Virus record (IMG/VR): IMGVR_UViG_3300013006_000018
DNA length: 64,000 nt
Source of the DNA: a virus
Direction: 5' to 3' (one strand)
The position numbers and the translations under genes were made by a program. Positions 5,139 through 50,553 of the stretch are shown here, piece after piece; the stretch's first letter is position 1, and each line of letters opens with the position of its first letter. The notes under the pieces are model-generated. The model did no database searches. It was given only the letters and a program-made list of their open reading frames with translations, and was not told where the DNA came from.

Positions 5139-6926
5139 TTAATGCTTGCTGCTACAGCTGCAAGATCTTTTTCCTGCCAATTCCTTAATCGCTTCTATTA
5201 ATAATGGAACAATTTTTTCATACTGTACGGTCAAGTAATTTTCTTTAGATATACTGTTATTATCCTTATCTAGATCAAACGGTGCAGGCACAACAGCTTC
5301 AGGTAGTACTTTTTGTATCTCTTGGGCGATAACACCGACCCTTTGCTTATCATCAAAACCGAGATCGATTGCTTTTTTATTGTGTTTATAGATAATACCT
5401 GAAAGAGTTAGTACCTTTTCCAAAGCACCGGGGATAACGCCTGTGATGTCCTTTAATCTTTCATCAGAAGTAAAGGCTGTTATGTCTCCTGTACAGAGAG
5501 TTGCACCATTAATCTGTAGGGTACCAGAACCTGGCTGCAGTGTTAGTGCACCGTTAGGGTTAATTGTAGTTGTCGAGCCTCGTATTAAGACTGTTCCTGT
5601 TGGTTGTATTTCAACATTGCTTGTGGGGTTGATATAAACAGGCCCCGCCTTGCCTACATATGTATTGTTACTATCAATCTGAATATTACCCCCGGAAGCT
5701 CTCATAATAATACCGCCAGCTCCTGCAGATAATCCCATAAAGGCATTTATACCTGTACGTACTACGAAATTATTATCATCCCCACCAGGCCTAGGGGCAA
5801 AGCTTACAGCACCTGAGACAGAGAAATTAGCGTTGTATTGTGATGCCTTAGTAGCCCAACTTTCAGTACCGATACCAACAAACGGACCGTCCGCTATAGT
5901 GAGAACCGTATTGAGTCCGGCGGGATGTATGTTATTATCACCATCGAATCTAGCTATACCTTGTTGCGAGGTATCTTTCTGCCAAACAACAAGGGCGGGT
6001 GAGTTTTTGTTAGTATTAACAACAGATAAAGCACTTGTGGTAGAGATTACTGTTTCGAGATATGTTAAGTCCCCGTAGACTGATAAATTACCTGTAATAG
6101 TAGCATTTGCATCACAGAAGATATTGTTTCTAAATAATGCTAACCCGGTAAAATCTAGATCAGGTGATGATGTGTCACCGTTAGCGGGGGGTGTAAAGAG
6201 TAAATTATTATTGCTGTCCAGTGTTATTAGAGTTGTATTGTTCCTCTTTAAGAGTAAGGCGTCTTTTGCAAGAATATTAAAATTACCACTAACAGCCTCG
6301 ATTGTATTTTGATTGGCACGTATTTGAATTTGATTAGGGTTAGGGACGTTACCATTAATATACATTTTATCATCAATATTAACGCGTGCTTCAAGACTGT
6401 TCTTTACATATCTATTTCTCGCATCACCAAAGTAAAAGCTTTGATATAGTGAACATAAAGACCAATAGGTGGTGTCGAGATTTATCTTTCCGTATGTTTG
6501 TTGAATTGAATTCGGTAATCCGGTATCTGTATATTCAAGGTTAAACCCATCGCCAATTAATTCTCTTGAAACTCTCCATAACCCACCGATTGCTTCGGGG
6601 TTTTCTATTGAGTTAGGGTAGGGTAGCGGGCCTGCTGCATCCCAAGATAGCCCATTATAGCTAAATAAATTACCTTGCTTGGTGTCATAGATTAAATCAC
6701 CTATAAACGCGAGCGACGTGAATAAATTCTTATTGCTAGTTCTGCCTAAGAACAAGTTGCTCACTGTACGACCACCTTGCGATACACCGTCCCCTACAAA
6801 AAGCCTTTGTGTATCTACAGTATACCCAAGTTCTCCTTCAGAAAGAATAGTAGTAATTCTATCTGAATTCTGGCCTCTTCTAACAAGAATTTTTACTAAA
6901 GTATCAGATGTGATTTCTATAGCCAT
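5139..6926 (-). CDS. Tail fibre with Mtd_N-like N-terminus and C-terminal peptidase S74 intramolecular chaperone
   Basis: KILVRRG...LSEGELGYTVDTQRLFVGDG at the N-terminus; TSDERLK...GVIAQEIQKVLPEAV...YLTVQYEKIVPLLIEAIKEL at the C-terminus. Confidence 0.85.
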   Translation of the reverse strand: MAIEITSDTLVKILVRRGQNSDRITTILSEGELGYTVDTQRLFVGDGVSQGGRTVSNLFLGRTSNKNLFTSLAFIGDLIYDTKQGNLFSYNGLSWDAAGPLPYPNSIENPEAIGGLWRVSRELIGDGFNLEYTDTGLPNSIQQTYGKINLDTTYWSLCSLYQSFYFGDARNRYVKNSLEARVNIDDKMYINGNVPNPNQIQIRANQNTIEAVSGNFNILAKDALLLKRNNTTLITLDSNNNLLFTPPANGDTSSPDLDFTGLALFRNNIFCDANATITGNLSVYGDLTYLETVISTTSALSVVNTNKNSPALVVWQKDTSQQGIARFDGDNNIHPAGLNTVLTIADGPFVGIGTESWATKASQYNANFSVSGAVSFAPRPGGDDNNFVVRTGINAFMGLSAGAGGIIMRASGGNIQIDSNNTYVGKAGPVYINPTSNVEIQPTGTVLIRGSTTTINPNGALTLQPGSGTLQINGATLCTGDITAFTSDERLKDITGVIPGALEKVLTLSGIIYKHNKKAIDLGFDDKQRVGVIAQEIQKVLPEAVVPAPFDLDKDNNSISKENYLTVQYEKIVPLLIEAIKELAGKRSCSCSSKH

Positions 6927-6927
6927 A

Positions 6928-7608
6928 TTATGAGATCATTAAATTGCTTCCGCTTTTCCAGAGTTTGCCTGGAGTGGCGGGCGCTACAGTTGGTAGATTA
7001 TCGATACCAAAACCTGTGCCGTTAATGTTTTGATTTGTAGTTATAAGACTAGAGATGTTGATGACGGAAGGGTTTACAAACAGCTGGTTACTCGCATTTA
7101 TTTTTATAGTAGAATTGTCGTGATTTATTGAAAGGGGCGCTGTAGCGCCTGATCTGTATAACCCTGTAGTAGCTCCTGAATAAACTGAAGAATGAAGATT
7201 AATGGCACTGATTGAATTTGTAGTAACAGTGAGCTTACCTTGAGGGCTGAACGTTATAGAACTATCATCAGTTCTTGGACCTATATACATGTATGCAGAT
7301 CTACTACTGTAAAGCGGGAAGTTATTAGCATCTACACCAGTAAGAGCATATAGTTTACTATCACCGGTATTGAATATTAAGTCGTTAAGTTGTGCGAATT
7401 TAAAAACACTGATGGTAGTATCTAGATTACCTTGATAGAGTTTAGTGGAAACCGAACTACCTCCTGCGGTAGACCCATCACCAACGAACAGACGACGTGA
7501 CTGTACATCTGTAGTAAAACCGAGCTCACCGTTGTCTAAGATAACTAGCTTTCTTTCCGCATCTGTACCGCGTCTTATTTTGATTTTAGCTATAGTTACG
7601 GTTGCCAT
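6928..7608 (-). CDS. Short tail-fibre protein with Mtd_N-like domain
   Basis: KIKIRRGT...LDNGELGFTTD...RLFVGDG; paralogous to the N-terminus of the neighbouring fibre. Confidence 0.7.
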   Translation of the reverse strand: MATVTIAKIKIRRGTDAERKLVILDNGELGFTTDVQSRRLFVGDGSTAGGSSVSTKLYQGNLDTTISVFKFAQLNDLIFNTGDSKLYALTGVDANNFPLYSSRSAYMYIGPRTDDSSITFSPQGKLTVTTNSISAINLHSSVYSGATTGLYRSGATAPLSINHDNSTIKINASNQLFVNPSVINISSLITTNQNINGTGFGIDNLPTVAPATPGKLWKSGSNLMIS

Positions 7609-7648
7609 TGAGAATATTTATTAAAAAAATTTAAATTCCAAAGTTATT

Positions 7649-9253
7649 TTAACCTATTCTGACTATATCACTATCTAAAGGACCGTAACTAACATCATCT
7701 TTTAGAATATTTAACATACTTTCTTGGTCGTTGTATATCTTTTCTAAGCTTCTGTTAACTATGTTATTTTGTAAGATTTCATTTATACCGATAAAGTATG
7801 TTATATCTTGCTCAAACGATATTGAGCTATACTCTTCAGGTAGTAGGTAACGCGCGCCGTTGAATACAAGATTGTTGTAATTATCTTTACTGGCTACAAA
7901 TTTACCTTTAATTTGATCACGTAATCTCATATTAACAATACAAAATTTTGAAAGTGCTTTGTTAAGGACCCAGTTTTGAAGATACTCTTCTTTGTCAATT
8001 TTTATTTCATCAAAGCTATAAACGTCAAAGTCATTTACCGATAAAACGTCGTATAAATTAATACTATCATAGACTAGAGCGATTTTTCCAACGTTATTAT
8101 ACCAGAGAAATATAAAGACTTGTTCCCTACCATTAACATTAATCGATTCCGCACTCTTAATGACTTGATTACTATCAACTTTAACACGGTAAAATAGATA
8201 CTTGCCGATATTTATATTAGGTTTCGATACAAACCGCTTGTATATATTTTTTGAAGTTACTATATAGAAGATATTGCTGTTTGTCTTAGAGAAAAATATG
8301 TTACGTAAGACTTCGCCTGCTTGTGTATTGATTGTTACTTCTTCTTTTACTTGAAAGTTATTAGAATATACAAATATTTTTTTATCGTTTGTTAAGACAT
8401 AAATTTTGCCTGCATTATCGCAGCTTATATTCATAGGATATGAAGACAGAAAATCAGTAAACAATCTGTAGGATGTTATCCAATTTAAGTTAGAATCATA
8501 TTTTTTAATTGTTTTATTTCCAGAATCTAAAACATACACGTTATCATTAAAAATGGTTATACCTTCTGGTGAGTTAAATTCCGTTTTATCTCTTGTAGAG
8601 CCATATCCACCTATGCTCTTAATAAAGATAGGTATATTTTTATAGATGTTATCGTCTGTTAAAAACCCAGCTACATCATACTTGAATAAATAATTTAACC
8701 CTTTATCAAGTACAAACATGTTATTGAGAGAATTAAATGATATGGCTACGATATTATTAAATAGTACTCCGGAATCACTATAACTTGCATCAGATTGAAA
8801 AGTTAAGCTACCAAAAGTATTATAAAAATTCGAAATAATTGTTGAAATAGAACCGGAATTACTCAAAAATATTGTATATTCATCTTTATTTTTATTAGTT
8901 TGAACTGAAATGATAGTAGTGTTGTCTATATTATTATAACCTCTACCTGAAAATGAATAAAATTCACTGGCGCTTAACCCACGCTTCCATGTTAAGTTAG
9001 TATCTATAGTTGAAGATAGACCAAAAGTTGCAGTAGCTGAGATAGGTATTATGTTTGAAGCAATTTTACTGTACTTGTAAAGATATAATGTATTTTCATA
9101 GAGTTTTAATAATTTAGAATTTATTATATCACTAGTAGCGATTTCGTTGGGCTGAATCTTAATATCTTCAAAAGAATAAGGTAGTTCTATAGAATCACCC
9201 AGATATCTGTCATACAGCAAGCCACGAGATTCAAAAATATTACTAATATTCAT
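7649..9253 (-). CDS. Virion structural protein with NHL-type beta-propeller
   Basis: FNSPEGITIFNDNVYVLDSGNKTIKKYD and similar NHL-like blades. Confidence 0.6.
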   Translation of the reverse strand: MNISNIFESRGLLYDRYLGDSIELPYSFEDIKIQPNEIATSDIINSKLLKLYENTLYLYKYSKIASNIIPISATATFGLSSTIDTNLTWKRGLSASEFYSFSGRGYNNIDNTTIISVQTNKNKDEYTIFLSNSGSISTIISNFYNTFGSLTFQSDASYSDSGVLFNNIVAISFNSLNNMFVLDKGLNYLFKYDVAGFLTDDNIYKNIPIFIKSIGGYGSTRDKTEFNSPEGITIFNDNVYVLDSGNKTIKKYDSNLNWITSYRLFTDFLSSYPMNISCDNAGKIYVLTNDKKIFVYSNNFQVKEEVTINTQAGEVLRNIFFSKTNSNIFYIVTSKNIYKRFVSKPNINIGKYLFYRVKVDSNQVIKSAESINVNGREQVFIFLWYNNVGKIALVYDSINLYDVLSVNDFDVYSFDEIKIDKEEYLQNWVLNKALSKFCIVNMRLRDQIKGKFVASKDNYNNLVFNGARYLLPEEYSSISFEQDITYFIGINEILQNNIVNRSLEKIYNDQESMLNILKDDVSYGPLDSDIVRIG

Positions 9254-12200
9254 TTATTGTACCCATTTAATTTCATTTATCTTAGTATAACCAGGAGCTG
9301 TCTGTTCTAAGAACGTTAAGACCCTGGCTTCGAGAGCAGCCCGTAATTCTTTATCACTAATACCGGTGTTCTTTATTATAATATTGAAGTTAGTAGCTTT
9401 TGACCCGGGTTTTTTAAACTTAAAGAACCGCTCTACTTCTTCTAAGTAATTCCGTTTACCGCATGCTGTATCGAAGTTTACAGGTAAAATATTAAGGCTT
9501 TCCTTGTTGTGAAAGTAGATATCAAAATTGTTTAACGGCTTATTATATAGATAGAAATTCTTTATTTTAAAACCGTCTATTAAATAGATAGGCTTTTGTA
9601 GGTAGTTAAAGAGCGGTAAAGAATTTGTATAAATACTACTTCCAATAAAGAACGGTCTTTCAATTAAATTACTAAATTTATATTTTCTAGGTGAAAACTC
9701 AGATCTTTGAATTTCTTTACTATCTATAAATAGAGACATATAGCCCTTATATGAGTCATAACGAACTGCAAAATGATGATAACCAGCATCCAGCGATGAG
9801 AGGCCTGCAGTTATTTCTATGTCCTCTTTTTGTATGTTATTAAAGACATTTACAAGTCTAGCTTTAACGGTCAAACTGCTATCCGGATATTTGGCTTGAA
9901 TATAGTTTCTAAGATAAGCTGAATTAGTTAAGTTTGAACCAAAAGCGGTTGTTTTATCTGTATATGTAGTGTTTTTAATACTCCCGTCATTATTGAGAGT
10001 AACAAATTTAATTTTATTGCCCGATAGTGGTCCTTGTTGCAGAATTATTGGATATGTGTTAATTCCTTGATTGGTAATTTCGGATACGAAATCGATATCA
10101 TAATTTTCATATGAGGAATCAGTAAAGACACCTGAGAGCACAAACGTTCTATCTTCAGTGAGCTTAATATAGCTATTTTTATTGTACAACACCCATATAT
10201 TATTATCAAAATCAAAATTAAAAGTATCAACTTTATAGTTATTCTTATAGGCTGTCAACACAGGAACTGAATTCGATTGAAAATCTTTCCACTTAAGGAT
10301 CGTATTGGTATTATCTTTTAGATAGTAAATATCATTACCTACTTTTCTAGATATTCTACCCGGGGTCATATATACATACCCGTCATAAAACACAAAAGAT
10401 TTAACACTAGATGTTGTAACAGACGGGAACTCTCCGGAAGGAGAACGTCTTCTTATGATGTAATCAGGGTCACCAGTTACATCTTCAATATTCATGTTTA
10501 TTAAGTCTGCTCTATAGAACTTATTAGTAAATGACGGTCCCGCTGGCACTACACATAGAAAAAAGGCTTCTTCATTACCATAGTCGTAGTAAGTTGTATA
10601 TTTTATTTCATCGTTGGCATCTTTAATTATTTTCGTCTGTGTGTGTAAGTTGGACATCTTTATGAGACTACTATCAGTAGTAACAACATAGTAGTCTGTA
10701 AACCCGTCGTATCTTAAAACACATAACACATTTGACTTAAATTCTATAGTCTGAAGATATTTTAAATCTGTATTGTAAATTTCTATGTTAGTTTTATTGT
10801 TGAGCAATAGAGTTGGTGTTACAACATTGTAATTAAAAATACCAAAGCCATCACCTGCGTAATTACCCATAATTTGGTAACCGAAAGGTTTTGTCCAGTC
10901 ATCTGAATGACCGAAGAAGCATATAGTAAATTGATTTGTGTCTTCAATTGAAGAAAGATTAACGGTTTGGGAGTACTGAGTACCATTAAAAATAAATTCT
11001 CTTTGATTTTCAATTGCAGGGTCGTATGCTGGCGAACCGTTTATATATTTAAAATTGCTTAGTTCTTTTTGTACTAAGAAAGGTTTAAATATATTAATAA
11101 ACCCGTCAGTATATTTCGGACCTATACGCTGGTAAGCATAATATGTACCTGGTTCAAATATTAAATCAGAAGGCTTATCAAATACATCTATATCAGCTAA
11201 AATAGCTCTGGCTTGATCAAATAAGCATTCAAATAGTGATACATATCTTATAGCTTCAAATGTATTCCCACTTAAAGCATCAAAAAAAGATATTTTTTTA
11301 GGGTTATAGTATCTATCCACCCATAAAGGCTTGACATCAGAATTAATACTGCCAGAAAGCCATGAGCATAGAAATGTTGAATCGGTCTCTTCAATTGTAT
11401 CACCGAAATGCGAGGTCAGCTTGTAGTCGGCCTTTTTCTTGAAGACTCTATCAGACTTTAAAGGATGGTCACCTGCTATTGCACCGGCTTCTATAAGACC
11501 TGAATCATTAATATTTAGAATTTTATAAGGGTAAAAATTATAAGGTATATGAAAATATGTAACTTTATCCGGATTAAACGTAATTAAATTAGTAAACGCC
11601 TCGTAAGAGAAAGAAATGTTATCGTCACCAAGTATCTGATTAGATCCAGAGAAAATCTTTTTATAATCTCTTTGCTCAACAGCGGTTTGAAAGATAAAAG
11701 GGTTATTTCTAGATTGAAAATTTTCAGGTGTATTAGTATTTTTGAGAGAAAGACAGTTAACATCGAGTGTAGTACCGCTTACATTAAAAAACTCATTATG
11801 AACAAGAATATTTGATTGAATGTCTTCATAGCTTCTTAGAGGGTTAATATCTTGTGAATTGTTTTTAAAGTTTTTATTGTAAGAGACCCAGGAATCGTAT
11901 AATTTTGTGTTGTTAGATACCTCAGGTCTATACATACACTTCCAAAGGCTTAGCGATGAGTAGGGAATTGAACCAGCAGTCAGTGGATCAGAAAGAACAA
12001 GTTTGTTGGTGGTGTTGTTGAGCTCTAAAAACTTAGGTACATCGTTTAAATTTTTTAAAAATAAAATTGCATCACTATCTTTATCGTAGATATAATTAAA
12101 GATTTGCGGGCTATATTGACCTAAAGCATCAACACTTGCATCCACAGCAAATACTAGATTATTTGTAACATCAACTGTTAGATATCTTGCAACACCCTTG

Positions 12201-12643
12201 TCTTCATGTGATATTTTACATGAAGCTTCATCTAGAAAGATAATATCAAACAAGTATCTTTGGTCTAATTCTGCAATACTACCGGAAACAGCCACAGCAG
12301 CAGCAGTGGCACTTATATCTTTTTCTTGGATAACCCAAAACTTAGAAAAGTTTGTAACGCTAGGTATAGCATTACCTGCTAGATAAGTAGAAAACCCTTC
12401 ATCTACTAGTTGATCTAACTGTTTAATGGAAAAAGCATCGTTAATATTTTGTTTTTTAGATAAAAATAAATTAGAATAGTTATTAACTTTATTATCATTA
12501 GTATTTAAAAAAATGTCAGAAAACTGATAAGATATACCTGCATCGGTAGCATATTGATAGCCGTTTACTTCGAACGTTTTATCATGCTTATATGCAGCCG
12601 ATAATACAGCCAGATTATTTGTATTAAAAGCATTAATATTCAT
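9254..12643 (-). CDS. Large virion structural protein (propeller inserted in LamG-like domain)
   Basis: 1129 aa; FNGTQYS...QFTICFF and YHHFAVRYDSYKGYMSLFID...IKNFYLYNKPL are LamG-like halves. Confidence 0.55.
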   Translation of the reverse strand: MNINAFNTNNLAVLSAAYKHDKTFEVNGYQYATDAGISYQFSDIFLNTNDNKVNNYSNLFLSKKQNINDAFSIKQLDQLVDEGFSTYLAGNAIPSVTNFSKFWVIQEKDISATAAAVAVSGSIAELDQRYLFDIIFLDEASCKISHEDKGVARYLTVDVTNNLVFAVDASVDALGQYSPQIFNYIYDKDSDAILFLKNLNDVPKFLELNNTTNKLVLSDPLTAGSIPYSSLSLWKCMYRPEVSNNTKLYDSWVSYNKNFKNNSQDINPLRSYEDIQSNILVHNEFFNVSGTTLDVNCLSLKNTNTPENFQSRNNPFIFQTAVEQRDYKKIFSGSNQILGDDNISFSYEAFTNLITFNPDKVTYFHIPYNFYPYKILNINDSGLIEAGAIAGDHPLKSDRVFKKKADYKLTSHFGDTIEETDSTFLCSWLSGSINSDVKPLWVDRYYNPKKISFFDALSGNTFEAIRYVSLFECLFDQARAILADIDVFDKPSDLIFEPGTYYAYQRIGPKYTDGFINIFKPFLVQKELSNFKYINGSPAYDPAIENQREFIFNGTQYSQTVNLSSIEDTNQFTICFFGHSDDWTKPFGYQIMGNYAGDGFGIFNYNVVTPTLLLNNKTNIEIYNTDLKYLQTIEFKSNVLCVLRYDGFTDYYVVTTDSSLIKMSNLHTQTKIIKDANDEIKYTTYYDYGNEEAFFLCVVPAGPSFTNKFYRADLINMNIEDVTGDPDYIIRRRSPSGEFPSVTTSSVKSFVFYDGYVYMTPGRISRKVGNDIYYLKDNTNTILKWKDFQSNSVPVLTAYKNNYKVDTFNFDFDNNIWVLYNKNSYIKLTEDRTFVLSGVFTDSSYENYDIDFVSEITNQGINTYPIILQQGPLSGNKIKFVTLNNDGSIKNTTYTDKTTAFGSNLTNSAYLRNYIQAKYPDSSLTVKARLVNVFNNIQKEDIEITAGLSSLDAGYHHFAVRYDSYKGYMSLFIDSKEIQRSEFSPRKYKFSNLIERPFFIGSSIYTNSLPLFNYLQKPIYLIDGFKIKNFYLYNKPLNNFDIYFHNKESLNILPVNFDTACGKRNYLEEVERFFKFKKPGSKATNFNIIIKNTGISDKELRAALEARVLTFLEQTAPGYTKINEIKWVQ

Positions 12644-12679: not shown

Positions 12680-14716
12680 CTAGCAGCCTAATACTACAAT
12701 TGGGCCTGGTTCTGCGGCATTCACCGGTACCCACCCTATAGAAGGTACTGAATACGGATTTGTAGATGGGTTAGAATATAACACACTAAGAGTTGAAGCT
12801 GAGATTATTCTCCATGTAGGTGTCGGCCAGTAGTCTATAACACCATTGTATGTAGTTCCAAATATTACTACTGCATCTATAAAGGGTGTTGGTGCATAAT
12901 AGAAGGGTTTATATGTCGGAATGCTGGCCGATAAGACTAGATTATAACAATTATCAATAGCAGATGTACCGGCGCCGATAACTCTTATGCTTGTAGGTAC
13001 AGCGGTTGGTGTCGGAGTCGGTGTAGAGGTTACAGTAGCTGTGGGTGTCGGTGAAGCGTTATTTGTTCGAGTTATCGAAGGTGTAATTGAAGGTGTTAAT
13101 GAATTGGTAGGTGTGGGTGAATATGTAGGTGTATTGGTTGGAGTCGTTGTATATGTAGGAGTAACTGTTGGTGTGGGTGTATTTGTTGGTGTTGCTGGAA
13201 TTGTTGGTGTCGGGGTGGGTGTTATACCGTCAAATATGCTTCCCTTGGGCAGCACAGCAGGTGCAGATATAACTTCAAAGGTTGTTATGTAGTTTGGAGA
13301 TTGAAATTCAAGAATTTCAACACTCTTGCTGTTGGTTCTTGCAATACTATTAATCAGGTGCTGCGAACTTGTATCGTAGGATGAAAAAGGTAGTAGTTTA
13401 AAATTAATTTTGAATGTATTAAAGTCAAAATTACCCATAATTGCAGTTATCGAAGCAGAAAATGAGGTTAATTCTTGTTCGGTGGGGAGATAAGTAAACT
13501 GGACGGCGTAGCTCTTAGGATCTGCAGGGTCAGCACCAATTCTAATGATATTATCTCCTGAATAGGTATAGGTAGGCACAATATCTTTTTCAATTGTAAT
13601 TGTTTTACCATTATCATTACTATAGATTAACTTTAATATCTTAAAATAATTATCGGAAATTGCAGAAGGATTTATTGTAAGTGTAAGATCACCTTTGTAG
13701 AAACCTATATCAATTTCATTACTTCTTCTTTGAATAGGATACCCCCAAGGGTAGATACTACCACCATTAGCTGATGCATTAAAGTAGAAATTAGATGCAG
13801 TTAGAATGTAGTTATATGTATTAATATCGTTATTGACCTGCTGCTGGGTGAATGAATAGTTAAACATTTTAGTAACTGCAATACTGCCTGTGTAGTGTTC
13901 TGAAGTACCGCCGTCTGGGTTAGCGTCCTCTGGCGCGCCTCCGATTTGAAGAGGCGAGGAGGATGTAGCATTAGAATTCGCGCTTGCTCCAGATATGTCT
14001 AAATCTACACCACTAACATTAAGTAGATACGTCAAAGGAAGGCTCGCTGCGGGGCGTAAATATTGCTTTACACCGTTTATATAGAGGTTAGCAATATTTG
14101 TATTTCTATTAAAGACAGCAGCTACATGATTAAACCCGTTGTGCTTTAGCGGAGACCCGCTAGTTTCAAAATAAACACAATTACAACCAGGGCCATATGC
14201 AATATTACTGCCTATACCGCTATAAACTTTACCGCTCTTTGAAACTTGTAACACATATCCCGGGCTCAACGCCCAATGCCCGTGTGAAATAATTCTTCTT
14301 TGGTTTGTTGATGGTTGAGCAGTGAAACCTGAGAATACTGATACTAAAGTAAAGCTGCCTGTACCGAAGTCGAAAGAATTGTTATCTGCAAATTTAATTC
14401 TATCTAACTTACGAGCACTTAAATTAAAATACTTGTTATTATTACTAGTAACCTTGACACTTCCTACCTGGCTATAGTTAGAAATATCGTTAACAGAAAG
14501 ATTGCCATAGTAACAGTACGGGTTAAAGGATTCTATATAAAGATTAGCGAGCTGTGGAGGTGTTGCTACCGGAGAAGAGAAATAACCGTCATTGACGGTG
14601 CATAAATAAGAAAAAGCTGTACTATAAATTGGGTCTACAAACAAATAACCGTTAATACAATCAGGTTTTTGTATAGGCGCTTGGTATGAAGACAGTACGG
14701 CAGAATAAAACTTCAC
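12680..14716 (-). CDS. LamG/ConA-like domain protein with Pro/Thr-rich stalk
   Basis: [10 protein letters not shown]...[10 protein letters not shown]...LYINGV...LQIGG...[12 protein letters not shown]; TPTPT tract near the C-terminus; GTG start 5 nt after TATAAATA. Confidence 0.75.
12995..13226 (-). repeat. Pro/Thr-coding low-complexity tract
   Basis: TPTPTPT... in the 678-aa protein; boundaries approximate. Confidence 0.85.
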
Positions 14717-15405: not shown

Positions 15406-18156
15406 CTATGGTGTGAAGTATTGTGAATTGTCTGTTATAATACGGTCCTGGTTATCTGCTATTATATAAATTGTTGTATCTGTTGAAGTCGGTGTAACAG
15501 ATGGGGTCATTGTCGGAGTTAAACCTGGGGTGGTCGTAACTGTCGGTGTCGGGGTCGGTGTACAGGTTCTTGTAGGTGTATTGGTTGTCGTGCAGGTTTG
15601 AGTAATTGTTGCTGTTGGTGTATTAGTTTGTGTGGGTGTGTTGGTTACTGTGTTTGTAGGTGTTACTGTACCTGTATTCGTAGGTGTACGCGACGGTGTA
15701 ACGTTCGGTGTAGGTGTATGTGACGGTGTAACGTTTGGTGTAGGGGTAAATGAAGGGGTCACAGTGCATGATGGTGTATTTGTAGGTGTAGCTGGCGGAC
15801 GAAAGTCTGGGCTCTTTGTATTATCTATAACACCGTTAATGTTGAAATTCTTAACTTCAAAATTACTACCGCATAATCCAGAGCTATAAGATAAACCGCA
15901 ATATACAGCGTTTGAAAGCGGTGTATCTTGCTGATAATAGTTAGCAGGCAGCTCAAAATTTACGTAATTTACAAAAATGTCTGTATTCTTTTTCTTTAAG
16001 TCTATTATAACGGTCCTGCCGATGTCTGTAAAACGTATTCTAGCTTTATGAAATTCTGGTTCACCGGAAGTTACTTGTTGATATAAGCTAATTGGTACCT
16101 TATATGCGGAGCTATCAAGTGAATTAGATGTATAGAGCAAAGGCCAAGTGTAATATGTAGGTCCTCTGATAGATATTGAATTAGATATCGGTACATCCCT
16201 GCCGGGCTGAATACCATAACTCGATAATGCGAAATTTCCTTTGAGATCAAATCCTATTCCTATGAGTCCTCCTGAAATACCGCCTGCAAATTGTGACCAA
16301 GGTACATATCCCGCATCATTTATCCATGCTGAAACACCAGACACCGCTGTATAACCTAAGCCGGGTCCTGGTGACCCACCACATAACGTAGAAACAAAAT
16401 TATTAAATAAGAATACACAAAAGCCTTCGTCACCCACAGGAGTTGTTCCATAGCATGCATACTCAAATGAGATAGTTAAGTCTGATTTTGTGCTAAACGA
16501 CTGTTGTAAGTAGAAAGAACCAGCTTTTCCATTGATAGGCATTTGATAAAAATCATATGACAGCGGAGTTGATGTAGGTCTCGGTGTAACCGTTGGTGTT
16601 AAGGTGGGGGTTGGTGTGTTTGTTGGTGTGGGTGTCTCGGTATAACCAACTGTCTTTGTGGGTGTCGGGGTGTATGTGGCGGTTCTGGTGGGTGAAGGTG
16701 TTAAGGTGAGGGTACCTGTATTTGTTGGTGTGTTAGTGGGGGTAGCTGTAGGTGTTAAACCTGGGGTAACAGTATTTGTGGGTGTGTTGGTTGGTGTCGG
16801 TGTTGGTGTAAACCCAACGCTGCATGTAGCTGTAGGTGTTTGTGTGGGTGACTGTGTAAAATTAGGGGTCGCGGGTGGTGTTCTTGTGGGTGTTGGAGTG
16901 ACTGTGTTTGTTGGGGTGAGTGTAATGGTCGTGGTCGGTGTCTGTGTCTGTGTTCTGGTGATTGTTACTGTGGGGGTTAGCGTTGGTGTGGGGGTGTTGG
17001 TAGCTGTAGGGGTCGGTGTTACTACATCAACCAGATTTCCTATGGAGTAACCTGAGTAATCGCTACTACCCGCGGTGTATAATACATATGTTACAAAATC
17101 TGTAAGTGAGGTTGGCTGTACGGTAAAGGCATTGTACGGATTTGTATCGCCCATTCCTAATTGCCCGAAATTATTTTGTCCGCAAACAGTTACTATGTCC
17201 CCATTAACACTATTGGGTACAGCGGATATACCTATACTATTTGTATACCCTCCAAATATACTAAATACACGTAAGCTATTTTGTAATACCGTCCAGGATG
17301 TTCTAGGTAGATTATCACTAGTACCTAACTGCCCGTGGGTATTATCTCCAGCAACCCATACCCGGTCATTCGATGAAATAGCTACGGAAAAAGCATTACC
17401 TGCATGAATACTTTTATATTTTCCTTCAATTCTTCGAAATGTGTATTGAATACCAGGTGCTCCGCCGGTACCTAATTGACCAGAAGAGTTATCACCAACA
17501 ACATATAAATCATATTCATTTGTTGTATTGCTCAATGCATTACCAGAAAGTAATAAAGCATGGGTAAGTCCGCATTTAAATGAAGTCCAGGTTCCGGTCG
17601 TTGCAGTCCAGGTAGTAAAGGAGGTACTAATATTACCGAGGCCTAATTGTCCTAACTTATTTGAACCGGCTACATAGATTTGATTGTTGCTTCTTAGTGC
17701 ATAAGAAAATCCGCTACCAGCACCAACCAGGGTATATGCAAAACCACCGTCGCTTGTAGCAACAAAAGTGTTTCTACTAATGTTTGTACCGTCACCAAGT
17801 GCACCGAAGGTATTGTTACCTGCGCCATATATGCGGCCATCAGCTAGATTAATAGCTAATGAATGAGCAACACCTGCGCCAATATTAGCCCATGTACCTG
17901 CAATAGGTTTATATACCTTTTGATTTACATTAGTACCATCACCTAACTGACCAGATATATTATTACCTGCAGCAGATAAAGAGCCTGCATTATTAAGAAC
18001 AAAGCTATGTGCACTACCTGCGGCTACATTTGTGAGTGTATTAAGAGGGAATAGGGTTGTACGGGCTGTAATCGTAAACAGTTCGCCTTGATTGAGCAGT
18101 CCTAATTGACCATGATGGTTGCTCCCTATACGTGAAAAAATAGTATTATTAGCCAT
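15406..18156 (-). CDS. RCC1-repeat propeller + Pro/Thr stalk + L-type lectin domain + Pro/Thr stalk
   Basis: Repeated GxNxxGQLG / AGxxHS RCC1 units; GDEGFCVFL...GPGLGY...IGIGFD legume-lectin signature; two TPT tracts. Confidence 0.8.
15480..15797 (-). repeat. Pro/Thr-coding tract
   Basis: C-terminal stalk of the RCC1/lectin protein; approximate. Confidence 0.85.
16566..17022 (-). repeat. Pro/Thr-coding tract
   Basis: Between the RCC1 and lectin domains; approximate. Confidence 0.85.
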
Positions 18157-21100
18157 TAGTCAATACCAAATACAAAGGTTCCATTGTTAATATTTAAATT
18201 GCCTGGTGAATTAAGCACGGTTTGTGTCTTAAAATATGCAGGTAAGTTGTTGAGTACAACATTACTTGCAGATAACCCGAAAGCTATATGGAGCGTATTA
18301 GCAGAAGGCATATACATGTTTGTTGAGGTATTCTCTAGGATACCATTAAAATACTTGAAGCCGTGTTTAAACATATAACTAGCATCCGAAGTATCTTTAC
18401 CGAGATATGTTACGAAAAAGGTTTCTGAATCTGCGTCATAACTCAACATCGATTTTTCGGTATAGTTAATATTAATATTAAGTTTTGAGGAGTTATTATC
18501 TAGTGTAAAGATAGGATCAGGATAGCTACCTTCATATGAAATTGAATTTGTATTGTCAGTTATTAATGAAAAATCTTTGAAGTTAAATATTTCGGGAGAG
18601 CCTTGTACGTTAAGCTGGGTATTTGGGTATTCCTTATGGATTCTACAATCTAATAAGCTTACCGAATACATTTCAGGTACTATCGTTTTATATATGGAAC
18701 CACTTAACAGGTGTAGTACTGTATTTTTACTAAAATAAAGTTTTTTCTCTTTTTCGTTAAAGAATATTGTTGAAATATCTTCTAAAGCATCTGAATTAAT
18801 ATGCTTTTGAATAAGATTAATATTATTTGAGGAGCTCTTGAGTGTATTGTCTGTATAATCAAATAATAATTTTTCAAAAATAACATAACTTTCTGTCTCT
18901 AAATACAGTACATCATAGTAAACATCGAAATTTATAAGTTTATTATTAATCTCGTCTTTTATTGTATCGGTATACTTAACAAACACCGCGCTTAAAGCTG
19001 AAGATACAGGCTCTATGATAGTACTATTTGAATTACGATAGTAGAGATCACCATAGTTAACAAAATTTGTATGATATATGTCTTGCTTTTCCAGGATTGA
19101 ATCCTGGTTATCGGCGTACAACGTTGTCCGACCAGGTATTCTTAAATTAATAAAATTTGAACGCTCAGTATATAGCGGTTCATTAAAGCTTACAGGGCTA
19201 CCACAAGGTGACGTTCCGTTTACTAGAAATACAAACCCATCTATACTAGTCACATTAGAAAGCGGTGCTTGATATGTAAAATCTGGAGGATAACCATAAA
19301 CAGGTCTATAGCCTGGTGCTGTAGGGTTTGCTGCACCATCAATGAGTTCGCTATAGTAAACCCTATAGGAAGCAGGGTTAAAGCTTGGATTATCGCTCGG
19401 ATAGTCTATAAGTTCTGCAGATGTCTGTGAAACAAAAGTTAAACCATCCTTATAATTACAACTATAAAACGTCTCTACAGTCTCAGAGCAGAATATTTCT
19501 GGTAAAAAATTATATGAAACAATATTAGTAAATTCGCCTTCTGGTAAACCGAAAGTAGGTACCCCATCATTATAATAAAAAGTGGAAAGCGGTGACTGAT
19601 CTGTATAACGCTTTAGTGGGTAGTCTGTATAAGAATAAGGAATATAGTATCCAGTACCTGGTGGCATATTAGTAGTTGTTTTTAACTCAAAATTATATAT
19701 AAAGGGATTTAAGGCCCCGCCATTAATAATAGAACAAAGTTTTAATCCTTCAGATTCTTTTTGTCCAACTACAGAAGGAAGTACCGCCAGAGGCTGTACG
19801 AACTTAAATAGCCCGTAGCTATTACCGTAAACATCTGATTTAAATTGAACAAGACTTTTATTTGTCGGTATGAGGGTCTTACTTCTGTTATTTATAGGAA
19901 ATTTATCAGCGGGTATTAAAGGGTATACATCTTCGTTAGCCCATACATTCTTAAGATATGAAGTAAAGAAATCTTGAGGGTCGGATTGTCTGTGTATTCC
20001 GTAGTTAATATACTCCAGGGACTGCTCCCTTGACTGATAAGCTCTAAATGTTTGTAGTTTACTATCTGTATATACATCACCAAACCGATATTGATTTGAA
20101 ATATCAATTTTATTGAAATAGTTATATTCAATAAATTTTAAGGGCGAATTAAATTCTTCTAGGGTAGTATTAGATATATTACCGTACTTGGATGGATCGG
20201 GAAATATATAGACAGAATTAGGAGCTAAGGTATCATAATTAAAATATGGTGTAAAGTTGAATGATGTAAATACGGATAACCCTAGTTTATCTGGTTTAAA
20301 GAACCCGCCAACCTCTTTTAATGTCTTTTGATTATTGGTGTCCTCTAGAACAGCAACAGTAGGATATCGCTTATTTACATAATTGGCATATGAATTTTTT
20401 GCTTTATAAACAATACCTGAAACATAATCATAGATAGTTGAACCAGTAGAGACATAGTAAAAATCTGTACCAATATATTTTTCAATTCCTAATTTTTTAA
20501 TGTTTAAATTTAAATTTTCATTGGTACCAGTGTTAACAGTATTAATAAAATCACTATCTTTTAAAAAGTAAAATTGTTCGGCAGATGAAGCCGGTGGTGT
20601 AATAGTAAAATTGTTTGTGCCTAATTCTTCTAAGAAGAATGGATAACTTGTAATGGCTTGTATTATTGATCTTGAAAAATCTAACGAAACATACGGGTCA
20701 CTATCATAAACGTTTAATTCAAAGTAAGTTTTCCTATCTCCGGAAGGATTATATGCCGTTAAAGGGACGTTGGGGCTAATATCATAATAATAGTCTGATG
20801 TATCATATAACTCCTCAACACCGATATTTAAATTATTTCGTATATCAGAAAGAGAGACATTTAGTGTCTTGATGATATCGGTTATATCTGCTGCTTCTAA
20901 TGCTTTTGATATTTCATTATAGATACCTTTTTGTATACCGTAGTTTGATCCACGTAAATTATTCTTAATCGGCGCGGTCTTGACGTCATCTCTAAGTGTA
21001 CTATAATAAAGACATATTTCTTTAATTTTCTTCGCAAAAAAAGGAATTACAGTTACTAATTCTCTATTATTATTAAAATCTATATTAGTTAAAAACCGTT

Positions 21101-21386
21101 TTTCATCCGGTGTTATATAGTTTAAGACGATTTCCTTGAGAAGAGTTACATATAGGTCCTTTATAGACGTATTATTTGTAAGTTCTTTATTATTCTGTAC
21201 ACTATACCAGATGTTTAAATATGTTTGGTATCTATTTAGAAATATTTCAGCTGTATCAAAAATCTTATTATTGTATGTTAACCACTGTTTAAAGGTAAAG
21301 GGTGATGTCTTGTCTAAGCCTGATTTATTGCCAGACGTAATAGACACTTCCAGTGTATTACTCTGTAGTTCAAGTATATCAGGCAT
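18156..21386 (-). CDS. Large baseplate/virion structural protein
   Basis: 1076 aa within the structural block, with its own late promoter; LRGSNYGI weakly recalls the gp7/P2-gpI 'KGT' motif. Confidence 0.5.
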
Positions 21387-43854: not shown

Positions 43855-43856
43855 CT

Positions 43857-46142
43857 TTAGGTTACAATCTCCTGGAAGTTTGTACCGGTACGTGTCGCAT
43901 AGAAGTTACAAAGGATAAATTCTGCTGTACGAACCGGTTTAACATAGATATCTACAATTAAAGTACCGTCATCAACAATGTCAGGTGTATTATTACGTTC
44001 ATCGCAAATAATGAGATAATCGTATATACCTTGCGTGTTTTTCGCGTTATCAAATATAGGAGTAATTGTATTTATTACATTTGTACGTGTGAATAATGTG
44101 TTTGGTTCAAACACGAAGAATTTAACAGTATCGCGTGTTCTATTTTCCAAGCTTAAGAACAATCTGCGTACATTAATACGATCGAATACGCTAGGTTTCT
44201 GCTGTAAGGTCTTTTGTCCAAAGATTACAAAGCCTTCTGCAGGGAAGAACGCAACTGGATTAATACCAATCTTATAAAGCTGGTCTCTCTGCTTTTGCTT
44301 TGGATAAAACGCCAGGTCATTCAATCCTGTTACTATACCGCGTGTAAAGCCGGCTGGTGCATACCATGGTTGATATGTTGAGTCTGTATTTGCGAAGTTT
44401 GCAGCTGCAAACCCTGAGAATGGGACCCATATTTGCTGGTTTGTAACAACATCAACGGTGCGACCACAGTTAGCAAATGTACAAACGAAGCTTGAATCAA
44501 TAGCGCTAAACTGGTTACGTAAGGGCCAGTACAGATTTGTTGAAAAGGCCTTAGTGGGGTCATCTAAAGTTTTAACATTCTGCCCTTGTACGAAGATGTT
44601 TGTAATAGCATCAGCAATAAAAATATGATCTTTGCGCTTGTTACCTGCAAAATTAATAAATTCATTAGCTACTGCCAAGTAGTTTTGTACGACTACTGGT
44701 AATGTCTGTAGATCTGATGCGCTTAATGCATTGATGGCACCGTAGACTACAGAATCATCAAAGTATGTGTCGGTTAAAGGATTAAAGGAGTTTAAATATA
44801 CAGTACCTAACCCGGCTTCTACTGAAATATTGATTGGATAAACATCAGAATTATCGAGCTTATCAAAGGCCGCTGCTAATTTAGCAGGTACATTACCGAT
44901 TACCTTGGTAGTAAGATCGGTACTTTCGAAATCACCTAAAGCAAACAACGAGTTTGTTGCACCATAAGTCTCAATAAACCCTTGAACCGTGGCTGACGGT
45001 GCGCCGAGTCTTGTTTCATATGTATCAGATGCTTCTTCTGCAAGCGGTGTTGCCATGCTCTCACTCAAGAAGCGTACCATCTTCGACGGTACACCTGAAA
45101 GATTCAACCAGGTTGTAGTAGCTTTATTGGAAATATAAGGGTTAATGAGCATCGTAACATTGAGCGATGTATCATCAAGATTTTCTAGGAAGAAGCTTGT
45201 TGCGGGTCCACCATTTACGCTATTTATTTGCCTGTAGTTATCAAAAGAGCCTACAAAACTTTCTTCTAAAACATAATCAAGGGCTATTGTATCGGGTGAA
45301 AATACAGATTGACGCAGTTTAAATAAACCAAATACCACTGTATCATTATACTGATTTGTGTAAAGGTTAAATGAAGGTATATTTTCCAGTACTTCCGATA
45401 CACTACCAGCAACGCCTGCAGGTGTAGCGCTAAGCGGGAAGTTTAATCTAATACTAGGAATATCGATATAATTATCGATAACGATGTCAGTTGAATTAAT
45501 TGTTTTAATTGCATTAACATCATTAAAAGGGGTTGCGGGGTTTAAATTACTGTTATCAATTATACCGACATAGTAACCTTCATATCTTGAATTGATTGAC
45601 GATTGAGATTTATTGAGTACAATAAGACCTGCAGCACTTAAGGAGGTTACTGTTTCGAACACTCCAACGCCTTTAGTATCTGGTGACCAGTTAAAGGCAT
45701 CACCTCTTAAGATATTGAGATATTCAACTTCTGAAAGTTTTAAGTGCGTCGGTTTACCGAAATAATAATGTGAATTTGCTGTTGTAAGGCTTGTGCTCGA
45801 AGCACTGGCGACATACGACACTACAGGGTATACTAAAGCGCTATAATTTTGTGTTGTTCCGACACCTGCGCCGCCACCGTAAGGCAAACGATAGATTAAT
45901 ACATCGGCAGGACTTTGGAACACTGCTTTTACAGTGTGGTAGAAATATCTTTCAGCAGCATTTGTAGGTTGTCCGAAAATTTGTTCAAATTGAGAAAGAC
46001 TTGCAATCTTAAAGGGTTCTGAAACAGGTCCTTTAGCTGCAAAACCTGGAACAAAGACTGTCGTTGCGGCTGGTCCTATAGCTGCAAGTGAAAGGTCAAC
46101 TTCTTTAATTTCAACACCGGGGCTCTGGATCGTACGTGCCAT
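43857..46142 (-). CDS. Tail sheath protein gp18
   Basis: SPGVEIKEVDLS, PWYAPAGFTRG, RDQLYKIGINP, GQKTL...FDRINVRRLF, FEPN, KPVRTAEFI. Confidence 0.95.
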   Translation of the reverse strand: MARTIQSPGVEIKEVDLSLAAIGPAATTVFVPGFAAKGPVSEPFKIASLSQFEQIFGQPTNAAERYFYHTVKAVFQSPADVLIYRLPYGGGAGVGTTQNYSALVYPVVSYVASASSTSLTTANSHYYFGKPTHLKLSEVEYLNILRGDAFNWSPDTKGVGVFETVTSLSAAGLIVLNKSQSSINSRYEGYYVGIIDNSNLNPATPFNDVNAIKTINSTDIVIDNYIDIPSIRLNFPLSATPAGVAGSVSEVLENIPSFNLYTNQYNDTVVFGLFKLRQSVFSPDTIALDYVLEESFVGSFDNYRQINSVNGGPATSFFLENLDDTSLNVTMLINPYISNKATTTWLNLSGVPSKMVRFLSESMATPLAEEASDTYETRLGAPSATVQGFIETYGATNSLFALGDFESTDLTTKVIGNVPAKLAAAFDKLDNSDVYPINISVEAGLGTVYLNSFNPLTDTYFDDSVVYGAINALSASDLQTLPVVVQNYLAVANEFINFAGNKRKDHIFIADAITNIFVQGQNVKTLDDPTKAFSTNLYWPLRNQFSAIDSSFVCTFANCGRTVDVVTNQQIWVPFSGFAAANFANTDSTYQPWYAPAGFTRGIVTGLNDLAFYPKQKQRDQLYKIGINPVAFFPAEGFVIFGQKTLQQKPSVFDRINVRRLFLSLENRTRDTVKFFVFEPNTLFTRTNVINTITPIFDNAKNTQGIYDYLIICDERNNTPDIVDDGTLIVDIYVKPVRTAEFILCNFYATRTGTNFQEIVT

Positions 46143-46148
46143 ATAAAG

Positions 46149-46156: not shown

Positions 46157-46186
46157 TTTTTTTGGATAAAGTTTTACAAATTTTTA

Positions 46187-46831: not shown

Positions 46832-46834
46832 ATA

Positions 46835-48541: not shown

Positions 48542-48546
48542 ATTAT

Positions 48547-48560
48547 TATAAATATTTAAG
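48547..48560. promoter_or_regulatory. Overlapping divergent late promoters (TerL / 48560 gene)
   Basis: TATAAATA (+) and CTTAAATA (-) share the palindrome TAAATATTTA. Confidence 0.7.
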
Positions 48561-49396: not shown

Positions 49397-49419
49397 ATAG
49401 TAAGAATAGACTTAAAAAG

Positions 49420-49451
49420 AAAGAGCCTAACGTAAGTTAGGCTCTTTTTTT
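49420..49451 (+). terminator. Rho-independent terminator (possibly bidirectional)
   Basis: AAAGAGCCTAAC-GTAA-GTTAGGCTCTTT, a 12-bp stem with GNRA loop, followed by a T-run and preceded by an A-run. Confidence 0.9.
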
Positions 49452-49466
49452 GCTTAAATATATTTG

Positions 49467-49838
49467 ATGACCTTTTTAGAATATTATAGATCAGGTGTCG
49501 TCCATAGACATATGAAGGATATTATTCCTGATCCTTCGTCACATTCCCAATCTCCAGGTAAGACTGTACCGGATTATGTACGGACAAAGAAAACAAATAC
49601 AAAATTAGAAGCTATAAAGAACATGGAAGTAGGTAGGTTTGTATATCTCACACCTTTAGACATCAAAGAAATAGAAGGAATGTTCCCTACAAAAGCTGAT
49701 TTATCTACATCTGCTAAGCCTGAAGTGAAAGAGATAGGTAAACCTAACGAAAAAGACGGCACAAGAATAGTACTTAGCTATGATCCCATGGTTAAGAAAT
49801 ATAAACTAACAAAATCAAGAGGTGTTAAAAATGTCTAA
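49467..49838 (+). CDS. Hypothetical late protein
   Basis: CTTAAATA-6nt-ATG; begins MTFLEYY. Confidence 0.6.
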   Translation: MTFLEYYRSGVVHRHMKDIIPDPSSHSQSPGKTVPDYVRTKKTNTKLEAIKNMEVGRFVYLTPLDIKEIEGMFPTKADLSTSAKPEVKEIGKPNEKDGTRIVLSYDPMVKKYKLTKSRGVKNV

Positions 49839-50553
49839 TGATTTTTATACGGGCGGGAACGGTATTCAGACATATCCTATTACACAGCCGATTAATCAAT
49901 GCTTTAGTTTTACAGATAAATCTCAAAACGGTTGCGAACGGCTCATATACTCAAACTACTGGCAGGAGCAAATCAATCTATATGGTCAGAATGTATTGTA
50001 TTTTGTAAATAACTTCAACTTATCGAGTGCGGATAGTTTATACGGTGAAGAACCAACACAGAAGTTTCAAGAGCCTAAGTTTATTAAATTAGGGATCAAT
50101 CTTAACGAAAACGCACTCATGTTGAGCAAGTATGGGTTAATGTCAGAGGATGAAGTTACAGCTTACGTTCATATTTCTGGTTATTATTCAACCTTTGGTT
50201 ATGGAGCAGAACCAAAGTCGGGCGATATCTTTCAATTATATGATTACGGGTTAGATAGACCGGGCGGGAGGAATGGTAGATATTACGAAATAACTGAAAG
50301 ATTAGATCAGGATATAGCACAGATAAACCCACTTGCAGGTCATTATGTATGGTTACTAAAAGCCAAGCGCTTTGAATACTCTTTTGAATTAGGTCTATCA
50401 GGTGCTGCAGATGCAATGAATAACCAGATTTTTGATGATGCTAAAAACACTAGTGTATCGGGTGCTAACAAACCCTATAGTTACAGTGCGGATGCTCAGA
50501 ATATATTTGACTATTCAGCTAGTAACAACGATAGTGTATATGGTGGTTATTAA
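49831..50553 (+). CDS. Neck/head-closure protein gp14-like
   Basis: EQINLYGQNVLY...LYGEEPTQKF...LSKYGLMSEDE...EPKSGDIF...YEIT...YVWLLKAKRFEYS; AGAGGTG SD-like sequence before ATG 49831. Confidence 0.8.
   Translation: MSNDFYTGGNGIQTYPITQPINQCFSFTDKSQNGCERLIYSNYWQEQINLYGQNVLYFVNNFNLSSADSLYGEEPTQKFQEPKFIKLGINLNENALMLSKYGLMSEDEVTAYVHISGYYSTFGYGAEPKSGDIFQLYDYGLDRPGGRNGRYYEITERLDQDIAQINPLAGHYVWLLKAKRFEYSFELGLSGAADAMNNQIFDDAKNTSVSGANKPYSYSADAQNIFDYSASNNDSVYGGY

Follow-up and report, generated by a model that had tools for sequence, protein, structure and literature searches.

A short serine motif enriched in the outward-facing tail proteins of uncultured T4-like phages: a candidate site of serine O-modification

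The general O-glycosylation system of Bacteroidota acts outside the cytoplasm on a sequon consisting of Asp, followed by Ser or Thr and then a hydrophobic residue. In the AIDA-I and TibA autotransporters, soluble heptosyltransferases glycosylate serines in the cytoplasm at the strand-loop junctions of a folded beta-helix. Phage proteins fold in the cytoplasm, in contrast to the place where the Bacteroidota system acts. In mycobacteriophage virions, phage-encoded glycosyltransferases place glycans on capsid and tail-tube C-termini, as related in PMC12619734 with reference to Freeman et al. 2023. Here we analyse a stretch of 64,000 nucleotides, IMG/VR record IMGVR_UViG_3300013006_000018 (the window), from an uncultured T4-like myovirus of ~35% G+C, in whose outer tail proteins a short serine-centred motif, in its best form [A/G/P]-L-S-[A/G/S], occurs in excess. 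An earlier reading of the same DNA, made without database searches (the sequence-only reading), had noticed it as a recurrent [LIVF]-S-[AG] tripeptide and had proposed it to be a Ser O-glycosylation sequon recognised by a phage enzyme. A full-text literature search turned up neither a Ser motif nor glycosylation of tail proteins described for T4-like phages.

As far as the mycobacteriophage case is described in PMC12619734, it resembles ours in that a phage would decorate its own virion with phage-made sugars, and in that glycosyltransferase genes reside in the phage genome: a PF13712 gene in the window, six glycosyltransferase-family genes in a related phage (record G001), its PF13712 gene included, and GT2 matches in 3/3 complete genomes of the clade. 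Unlike the situation outlined there, and comparing the placement of the motif only, capsid and tube are not enriched here, and the candidate sites are internal, with 10-40 of them per giant tail protein. With the Bacteroidota system our motif would share a three-residue, Ser/Thr-centred signature marking many unrelated proteins for one enzyme system; the difference is that here Leu precedes the Ser and a small residue follows it, with D-S-[AG] at 3 vs 4.3 (here and below, observed vs expected) and no enrichment of Ile, Leu or Val after Ser. The likeness to AIDA-I and TibA would consist in a soluble transferase acting on many serines at strand-loop junctions of a beta-rich surface protein, whereas the substrate folds differ and no homologue of their transferase family was seen, no search having been aimed at one. 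The motif further recalls ST-turns, Asx-turns and helix N-caps with a hydrophobic staple, which use Ser, Thr, Asp and Asn alike and occur in all proteins. Common to these elements and the motif are a hydrophobic residue and then Ser at a turn or helix start, and the ability of Asn or Thr to substitute; in contrast to them, the enrichment seen here is limited to Ser preceded by Leu and to the outer tail proteins of a single clade.

Recognisable in the window are gp6, gp25, sheath, tube, terminase, clamp loader, primase, helicase and gp32. The phage has no close cultured relative, its sheath being <41% identical to each of 2699 matching phage records. Thirteen open reading frames (ORFs) after gp6, spanning 4594-28689 (the block), have the appearance of baseplate-periphery and fibre proteins, in which Pfam detects PKD together with an NHL-type propeller, an RCC1 propeller, Laminin_G_3, NHL, Mtd_N and Peptidase_S74 domains. 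The [LIVF]-S-[AG] counts of the sequence-only reading turned out to be exact (11, 9, 8, 7 and 6 for the 1142-, 1129-, 678-, 916- and 849-aa proteins, respectively, 6 for the sheath, 3 for the gp14-like protein and 0 for gp6), as did the scarcity of sites it had noted in replication and packaging proteins (terminase 1, helicase 1, primase 2, clamp loader 0). Composition leads to an expectation of 2.4-3.4 such sites per large protein, and whole-protein shuffles gave p values of 0.0005 for the 1129-aa protein, 0.001 for the 1142-aa, 0.0025 for the 678-aa, 0.0095 for the 916-aa, 0.05 for the 849-aa, 0.04 for the sheath and 0.03 for the gp14-like protein. Pooled counts were 54 vs 22.0 for the block and 30 vs 26.0 for the remaining 46 ORFs.

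Four of these proteins hold 88-303 residues of Thr/Pro stalk, which skew an expectation based on composition and had to be masked. With the stalks masked and residues shuffled inside 60-, 30- or 15-residue windows, the expectation for the block was 22.4-24.0 and 0/1000 shuffles reached 54; the excess thus outlives correction for Ser/Gly/Ala content and for local composition. The pattern having been picked post hoc, 50,953 class patterns were scored on the masked block, and [LIV]-S-[AG] ranked first among them (50 vs 18.1, p=4.9e-10), with [AGP]-[LIV]-S close behind (59 vs 24.0). Composition, local composition and dilution by Thr/Pro linkers are ruled out as its source by the masked local shuffles and the pattern scan. 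At the central position Ser alone is enriched, the Thr form standing at 28 vs 25.1. As to the first position, the choice of Leu, Ile and Val by the sequence-only reading holds and that of Phe does not (F-S-[AG] 4 vs 4.3), and Leu is the main contributor (25 vs 6.4), far ahead of Val and Ile. After [LIVF]-S only Ala (26 vs 9.5) and Gly (28 vs 12.5) are enriched in that comparison, and LSS, which had been suggested as a related form, indeed raises the signal (12 vs 5.2 in the block). The Ser codons at the 54 sites include all six, in proportion to their general use, and the Leu, Ala and Gly codons vary; hence the signal lies in the protein rather than the DNA, and a DNA-level motif is excluded. 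Shared ancestry, which the sequence-only reading had discounted because the folds differ, leaves little trace at the level of BLASTP, where the carriers match one another just in the N-terminal parts of the 595- and 226-aa proteins and in one Thr/Pro stretch; the carriers may still be akin in fold. The motif excess in the outer tail proteins is real, and its core is sharper than first described, being L-S-[A/G/S].

With the pattern fixed beforehand, 16 related viral contigs were gathered using the 1142-aa protein as query. The ORFs after gp6 had an observed/expected ratio (O/E) for [LIVF]-S-[AG] of 2.0-3.5 in 14/16 loci, and ORFs before gp6 were near 1. A blind scan of 59,510 patterns over 20 ORFs from four of these loci, with the window excluded, placed L-S-[AGS] first (111 vs 25.4, p=6e-36). 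A gp6 profile matched at least 533 contigs, from which 80 loci were retained and 68 of these counted; the 12 omitted were L006, L008 and L105, which were counted in smaller sets, and L054, L062, L069, L072, L075, L078, L099, L100 and L106, which were short and dropped by hand. Across the 68 loci, ORFs after gp6 contain 991 vs 225.1 L-S-[AGS] (4.40x) and 1119 vs 392.5 [LIVF]-S-[AG] (2.85x), and those up to and including gp6 contain 153 vs 190.1 (0.80x) and 324 vs 342.6, respectively. As the loci come from related phages, p-values overstate their independence, although the effect size is unaffected. Among the loci that hold at least 1500 residues after gp6, 42/43 have an O/E of at least 2, the sole exception being L065 (record G010, 222 kb, complete by CheckV), with L-S-[AGS] at 3 vs 3.4. 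This same locus has L-T-[AGS] at 9 vs 4.4 and V-S-[AGS] at 6 vs 3.0, and its genome is the richest in GT2 and GT25 matches.

The relative G001, which is 163 kb long and comprises L024-L032, repeats the contrast within one genome: its seven giant tail ORFs have 67 vs 21.6 L-S-[AGS] and its other 148 ORFs 36 vs 36.9. It is nearly free of stalks (0-20 residues masked) yet carries the excess, which indicates that stalks and motif are separate features. Acceptor sites of a mucin type within the Thr/Pro stalks are accordingly rejected, as all counts were made with stalks masked and the excess in G001 arises almost without them. In the fibres and outer baseplate of T4, [LIVF]-S-[AG] stands at 17 vs 20.4 and L-S-[AGS] at 7 vs 8.0; all 86 T4 ORFs on 94 kb give 29 vs 28.8. 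In cyanophage ACG-2014d, three structural proteins, among them a giant one covered over 6330 residues, give 40 vs 30.4 and 8 vs 11.6 for the two patterns. On these two outgroups, T4 and one cyanophage, the motif is ruled out as a general property of phage fibres. An artefact compounded of a post hoc pattern, Ser/Gly/Ala patches, Thr/Pro dilution, hidden repeats or a DNA motif could draw on the facts that the pattern was picked after the data had been seen and that four proteins carry 88-303 linker residues. Nevertheless, the first rank among 50,953 patterns, the failure of all 1000 local shuffles, the replication of a fixed hypothesis in 16 and then 68 loci, the blind rediscovery, the ordinary usage of Ser codons at the sites and the want of BLAST paralogy leave such an explanation with next to no chance of being right.

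The anatomy of the motif was resolved on five phages (23,121 residues), in which L-S-[AGS] occurs 148 times vs 37.8. Replacing the middle residue abolishes the excess: L-T-[AGS] 30 vs 29.3 (1.03x), L-N 23 vs 41.1 (0.56x) and L-D 22 vs 22.9 (0.96x). Swaps of the first residue give 1.45x for I-S, 1.68x for V-S, 2.45x for M-S, 1.14x for F-S and 0.78x for Y-S, and the reversed form [AGS]-S-L gives 1.16x. After Leu-Ser, Lys and Pro are avoided (L-S-K 0.33x, L-S-P 0.55x). The flanks are weak, with Ala, Gly or Pro at the second position upstream of the Ser; the form [AGP]-L-S-[AGS] reaches 218 vs 26.9 (8.1x) in 40 loci, namely the 43 with at least 1500 residues after gp6 minus three duplicates. In 14 loci chosen by hand to span gp6 identity, the three highest-ranking of all 8000 tripeptides are LSA (5.9x), LSG (4.5x) and LSS (3.5x), and PLS, LTA and ALS come next. 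Position profiles display no enrichment of Asn before the Leu, by which an N-x-S/T reading is ruled out. The lipobox of lipoproteins runs Leu, Ala/Ser, Gly/Ala and then Cys; a lipobox or signal-peptidase site is rejected, as Cys is not enriched after the motif in profiles of 54 and 162 sites and the sites are spread along whole proteins rather than confined near the N-terminus. The pattern [ST]-[GAS]-S is not several-fold enriched, the block giving 38 vs 27.3 and the 40 related loci 469 vs 399.9; in the same comparison [ST][GAS]S reaches 1.17-1.39x, [ST]GS 1.36-1.87x and L-S-[AGS] 3.1-4.3x.

On the virion, the excess follows the order giant distal proteins, sheath and then capsid, with inner and non-virion proteins at ~1. 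For the sheath (43857..46142, - strand, 761 aa), the window protein has 6 vs 2.5 [LIVF]-S-[AG] and 4 vs 1.0 L-S-[AGS]. The claim of a sheath excess holds over homologues in general and fails in G001, whose sheath has [LIVF]-S-[AG] at 1 vs 3.2. The general test used 63/64 full-length loci passing filters plus the window sheath, clustered at 90% to 35 non-redundant sequences, with L-S-[AGS] at 109 vs 42.6 (2.56x). These divide into 87 vs 38.4 in the N-terminal and variable part and 22 vs 7.3 in the last 320 residues, the latter being probably a few inherited sites. In T4 gp18 the count is 2 vs 0.8. The ORFs flanking the sheath (tube, terminase, inner baseplate) have 47 vs 46.5 L-S-[AGS] (1.01x). 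The same flanking ORFs (L111-L188), whose rows are homologous, have [LIVF]-S-[AG] at 50 vs 89.9 (0.56x). A depletion of the motif in non-tail proteins was considered and dropped: the 0.80x before gp6 and 0.56x beside the sheath come from homologous rows, but the window and G001 give 0.97-0.98x. Among 57 non-redundant capsid homologues out of 72, [LIVF]-S-[AG] stands at 83 vs 76.5 (1.09x) and L-S-[AGS] at 55 vs 32.4, approximately one per protein. The excess is restricted to outward-facing tail proteins.

For the 1142-aa protein, 290 relatives are found at E<=1e-10. In 92 aligned full-length homologues the mean is 9.6 motifs vs 3.3, distributed over 81 different columns, of which four hold the motif in 55-78 of the 92 sequences and many in one or two. 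Of the 11 sites in the window protein, 8 are kept at 78% identity, and a single column is held in common with relatives at 25-34% identity, which have an excess of their own. Judged from this alignment, motif density is maintained while some sites move, and 'convergently maintained' is a fair description. Within the family, motif serines are better conserved than other serines (0.63 vs 0.43, p=0.008) and are replaced by Thr (34%) and Asn (17%), with Ala outside the top eight replacements vs 13% at other serines. A second, unrelated family of about 2000 aa (16 members) has 14-26 L-S-[AGS] vs about 3.5-4 in most members. Its motif serines are also better conserved (0.58 vs 0.46, p=0.02), and they are replaced by Asn 28%, Thr 22%, Tyr 12% and Ala 5%, vs Ala 16% at other serines. 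In one member of this family L-S occurs 8 times and L-T 12 times vs 2.7. From these replacement profiles, the serine hydroxyl evidently matters at the motif sites.

Candidate modifying enzymes are present in these genomes. In the window, sugar and modification genes comprise a small GT-A glycosyltransferase (Glyco_tranf_2_5, PF13712; 61265..61930, - strand, Pfam E=9e-8), which is the sole glycosyltransferase there, an RmlD/epimerase-like sugar-nucleotide enzyme (54418..55296, - strand, Pfam RmlD_sub_bind E=1.5e-14), a methyltransferase and amidotransferases. In G001 an 11-kb cluster (L027:901-11816) encodes two GT25 proteins, a GT10, a GT47-like protein, a Nucleotid_trans, two FkbM methyltransferases and an epimerase; outside the cluster there are a PF13712 homologue 44% identical to that of the window, RmlC, a cytidylyltransferase and an APS kinase. 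The families of the cluster (GT47 exostosin-like, GT10 fucosyltransferase, Nucleotid_trans and GT25) are more usual in eukaryotes, and G001 also encodes a SET-domain protein. In a set of five more large genomes, matches to PF13712 occur in 4/5, to GT2 in 4/5, including all three complete ones, and to GT25 in 1/5. GT60 (PF11397) has no match in five related records and PF03407 none in records G006-G010, the control genomes being without a match too in both cases. Judged from family matches, the transferases of the clade are plentiful and variable.

The explanation that we prefer by a small margin, and to which we give a probability of about 0.4, is O-modification of the Ser in the motif, with glycosylation first in line. 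Under it, [A/G/P]-L-S-[A/G/S] would be a short linear motif selected for high density in outward-facing tail proteins, namely the giant baseplate-periphery and fibre proteins and the sheath, in a large clade of uncultured aquatic T4-like phages. A trans-acting phage factor would read the motif and modify the serine hydroxyl, O-glycosylation being the leading candidate modification because of the glycosyltransferase cassettes in these genomes. Residue specificity, independence of fold, restriction to the outward tail and absence from the outgroups argue for a sequence-reading factor. Likewise, the preference for Leu over Ile and Val and the small residue after the Ser look more like the requirements of a binding pocket than those of core packing. 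That a factor reads the motif, that this factor is an enzyme and that its product is a glycan are steps each of which we infer. The full version, in which a clade-wide, phage-encoded system modifies this Ser on the sheath, the periphery of the baseplate and the fibres, with 10-40 sites in each protein, the simplest product being an O-glycan supplied by variable transferase cassettes, seems to us somewhat unlikely as it stands. The sequon proposed by the sequence-only reading is thus upheld in several of its parts, that is, the excess after correction for content, the unrelated carriers, the upkeep in distant relatives and the confinement to the tail; it is not borne out in its link to an enzyme, for the only glycosyltransferase of the window does not track the excess.

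Several further observations weigh against modification of the serine, the first of them concerning the enzyme. The PF13712 transferase was rejected as the motif reader on account of two genomes: the complete genome G008 shows the excess (14 vs 4.5) yet lacks the gene, and G010 encodes it although the excess is missing there. Neither GT25 nor Nucleotid_trans is common to the whole clade, and a conserved reading enzyme was not found among the families searched in the clade genomes. The capsid, which is the largest exposed surface, is not clearly enriched in its 57 homologues, and its L-S-[AGS] is probably a single inherited site. Asn, the leading replacement of the Ser along with Thr in the two families (17-28%), cannot carry an O-glycan, and its frequency fits a hydrogen bond from side chain to backbone. 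The motif Leu is strongly conserved and probably buried. Thr is enriched six residues upstream of the motif Ser (35 vs 12.2, and 29 vs 7.3 at [IV]S[AGS] sites; window block plus L003, L007, L010 and L012), where a hairpin-like element or a hexad-like repeat may be present in a subset of sites. The typical context of this upstream Thr is L-T-V-x-G-x-I-S-G.

Predicted structures bear on the same question. An AF2 model of the 1142-aa protein (25261..28689, - strand), built on the 92-sequence alignment, has a pLDDT of 80.6 and consists of a PKD-like domain, a propeller and a helical region, with Foldseek matches to NHL/YVTN propellers and streptogramin lyase. On visual reading, its sites 500, 592, 650 and 696 occupy the loop that follows the first strand in one blade after another, and a P-L-S-G-F blade consensus is common to sites 620 and 723. 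In a weaker, all-beta AF2 model of residues 640-1100 of a 2000-aa protein (pLDDT 62.9), about 8-9/11 sites coincide with the C-terminal end of a strand or come immediately after it, as read by eye from the DSSP string. The blade-periodic loop sites and the strand ends likewise count against modification. These features are consistent with a structural micro-motif that carries no modification, in which a buried Leu ends a strand or precedes a helix, the Ser caps the backbone and the small residue permits a turn. The outer tail proteins of the clade would then draw on a shared pool of beta-rich domains, with a family 'style' partly inherited and partly convergent. To the periodic sites, the P-L-S-G-F consensus and the strand ends of the low-confidence model this explanation can add the conservation of motif columns in 55-78/92 homologues and the invariance of some in the 2000-aa family, the replacement of Ser by Asn and Thr and rarely by Ala, the Thr at six residues before the Ser, and the failure to find a reading enzyme among the families searched.

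We regard such a structural origin, which fits nearly as well as modification, as a tentative but serious possibility, against which other evidence speaks. In the better model, the contexts are mixed: the 11 sites comprise about 6-7 in coil, 3 in strand and 1-2 in helix or N-cap, and the 19 [LIVF]S[AGS] sites are distributed like all Ser, with 2-4/19 at helix starts. A generic capping motif should enrich Thr, Asn and Asp, whereas L-T, L-N and L-D remain at the 1.03x, 0.56x and 0.96x given above; the expected interchangeability in N-caps and ST-turns is thus missing overall, yet Thr and Asn are the main replacements at conserved motif columns. The predominance of Leu far above Ile and Val is unexpected in strands. 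Furthermore, there is no excess in the T4 fibres, in the 6330-aa stretch of the giant cyanophage protein or in other proteins of the same phages, and the motif is borne by several unrelated folds.

The sequence specificity, fold independence and tail restriction that argue for a reading factor would equally suit one that reads the motif without modifying it, such as an assembly chaperone of fibres or baseplate, a docking partner within the tail or a ligand on the host surface. Fibres of the T4 type do need dedicated chaperones. However, 10-40 copies per protein far exceed what docking or a chaperone would need, and no candidate partner was identified, so that we consider this explanation improbable.

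Should the motif prove to be an attachment site, then, as far as the literature search shows, no earlier virion modification of T4-like phages has been defined by a sequon. The modification would extend over those regions of the particle that are in contact with host and environment, in a clade abundant in aquatic metagenomes (at least 533 gp6-matching contigs), its sites would become predictable from sequence, and it would have a bearing on how hosts are recognised, on stickiness and resistance to proteases, and on how marine viruses decay. Should it be structural, it would still represent a strong sequence rule not reported before (8x over the four residues), which flags the outward-facing tail proteins of the clade in unannotated contigs and cautions against reading similar motifs as sequons.

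Individual carriers in the window differ in strength. The 1142-aa protein, which lies directly after gp6 and combines the Pfam PKD domain with an NHL/YVTN-type beta-propeller, has the strongest excess, with 11 vs 3.4 [LIVF]-S-[AG], 12 vs 1.8 L-S-[AGS] and 6 vs 0.27 [AGP]LS[AGS]. The 1129-aa distal tail protein of no known family (9254..12643, - strand) has 9 vs 2.5 and 7 vs 1.3 for the first two patterns, and the 678-aa protein with Laminin_G_3 and an 88-residue Thr/Pro linker (12680..14716, - strand), for which 2 homologues were found, has 8 vs 2.5 and 3 vs 1.1 after masking. The 916-aa protein (15406..18156, - strand) has an RCC1-type propeller, Thr/Pro linkers (296 residues masked) and C-terminal domains, with [LIVF]-S-[AG] at 7 vs 3.2 after masking. 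The 849-aa protein (21620..24169, - strand), composed of Thr/Pro stalks (253 residues masked) and a head domain, gives 6 vs 2.7 and 4 vs 1.4. A weaker excess is seen in the 1076-aa distal tail protein (18156..21386, - strand; 4 vs 2.1 and 3 vs 1.4), and the 534-aa NHL-repeat protein (7649..9253, - strand) has 3 vs 1.4 and 3 vs 0.8. The 595-aa tail fibre protein (5139..6926, - strand), with Mtd_N and a C-terminal Peptidase_S74 self-cleaving chaperone domain, has [LIVF]-S-[AG] at 4 vs 2.0. The gp14-like neck protein of 243 aa (49822..50553, + strand), which was counted in the window only, has 3 vs 0.7 and 2 vs 0.4. As contrasts, the 357-aa protein that is nearly all Thr/Pro stalk (24184..25257, - strand, 303 residues masked) has zero sites, and the gp6 baseplate wedge protein (28689..30542, - strand, 617 aa), at the edge of the enriched block, has 0 vs 1.2 [LIVF]-S-[AG].

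The Thr/Pro stalks themselves, of the form TPTPTxTPT, occur in 12680-14716, 15406-18156, 21620-24169 and 24184-25257, all on the - strand, with 88, 296, 253 and 303 masked residues, respectively; T-P-[ST] in the block stands at 152 vs 21.7, and TPT occurs 118 times. The adjacent ORFs 5139-6926 and 6928-7608 (- strand) have a common Mtd_N-type N-terminus, with 29% identity over 212 residues. Behind its Thr/Pro stalk, the head domain of the 849-aa protein, which has no Pfam match, contains H-E-x-x-H at residues about 540-546. We take this to be the zincin metalloprotease signature, and on that basis the protein is possibly a virion-borne protease. Finally, a QueC-like gene (63501-63947, - strand) and two glutamine amidotransferase-like genes (61927-62850 and 1-828, both - strand) suggest a 7-deazaguanine DNA modification pathway.

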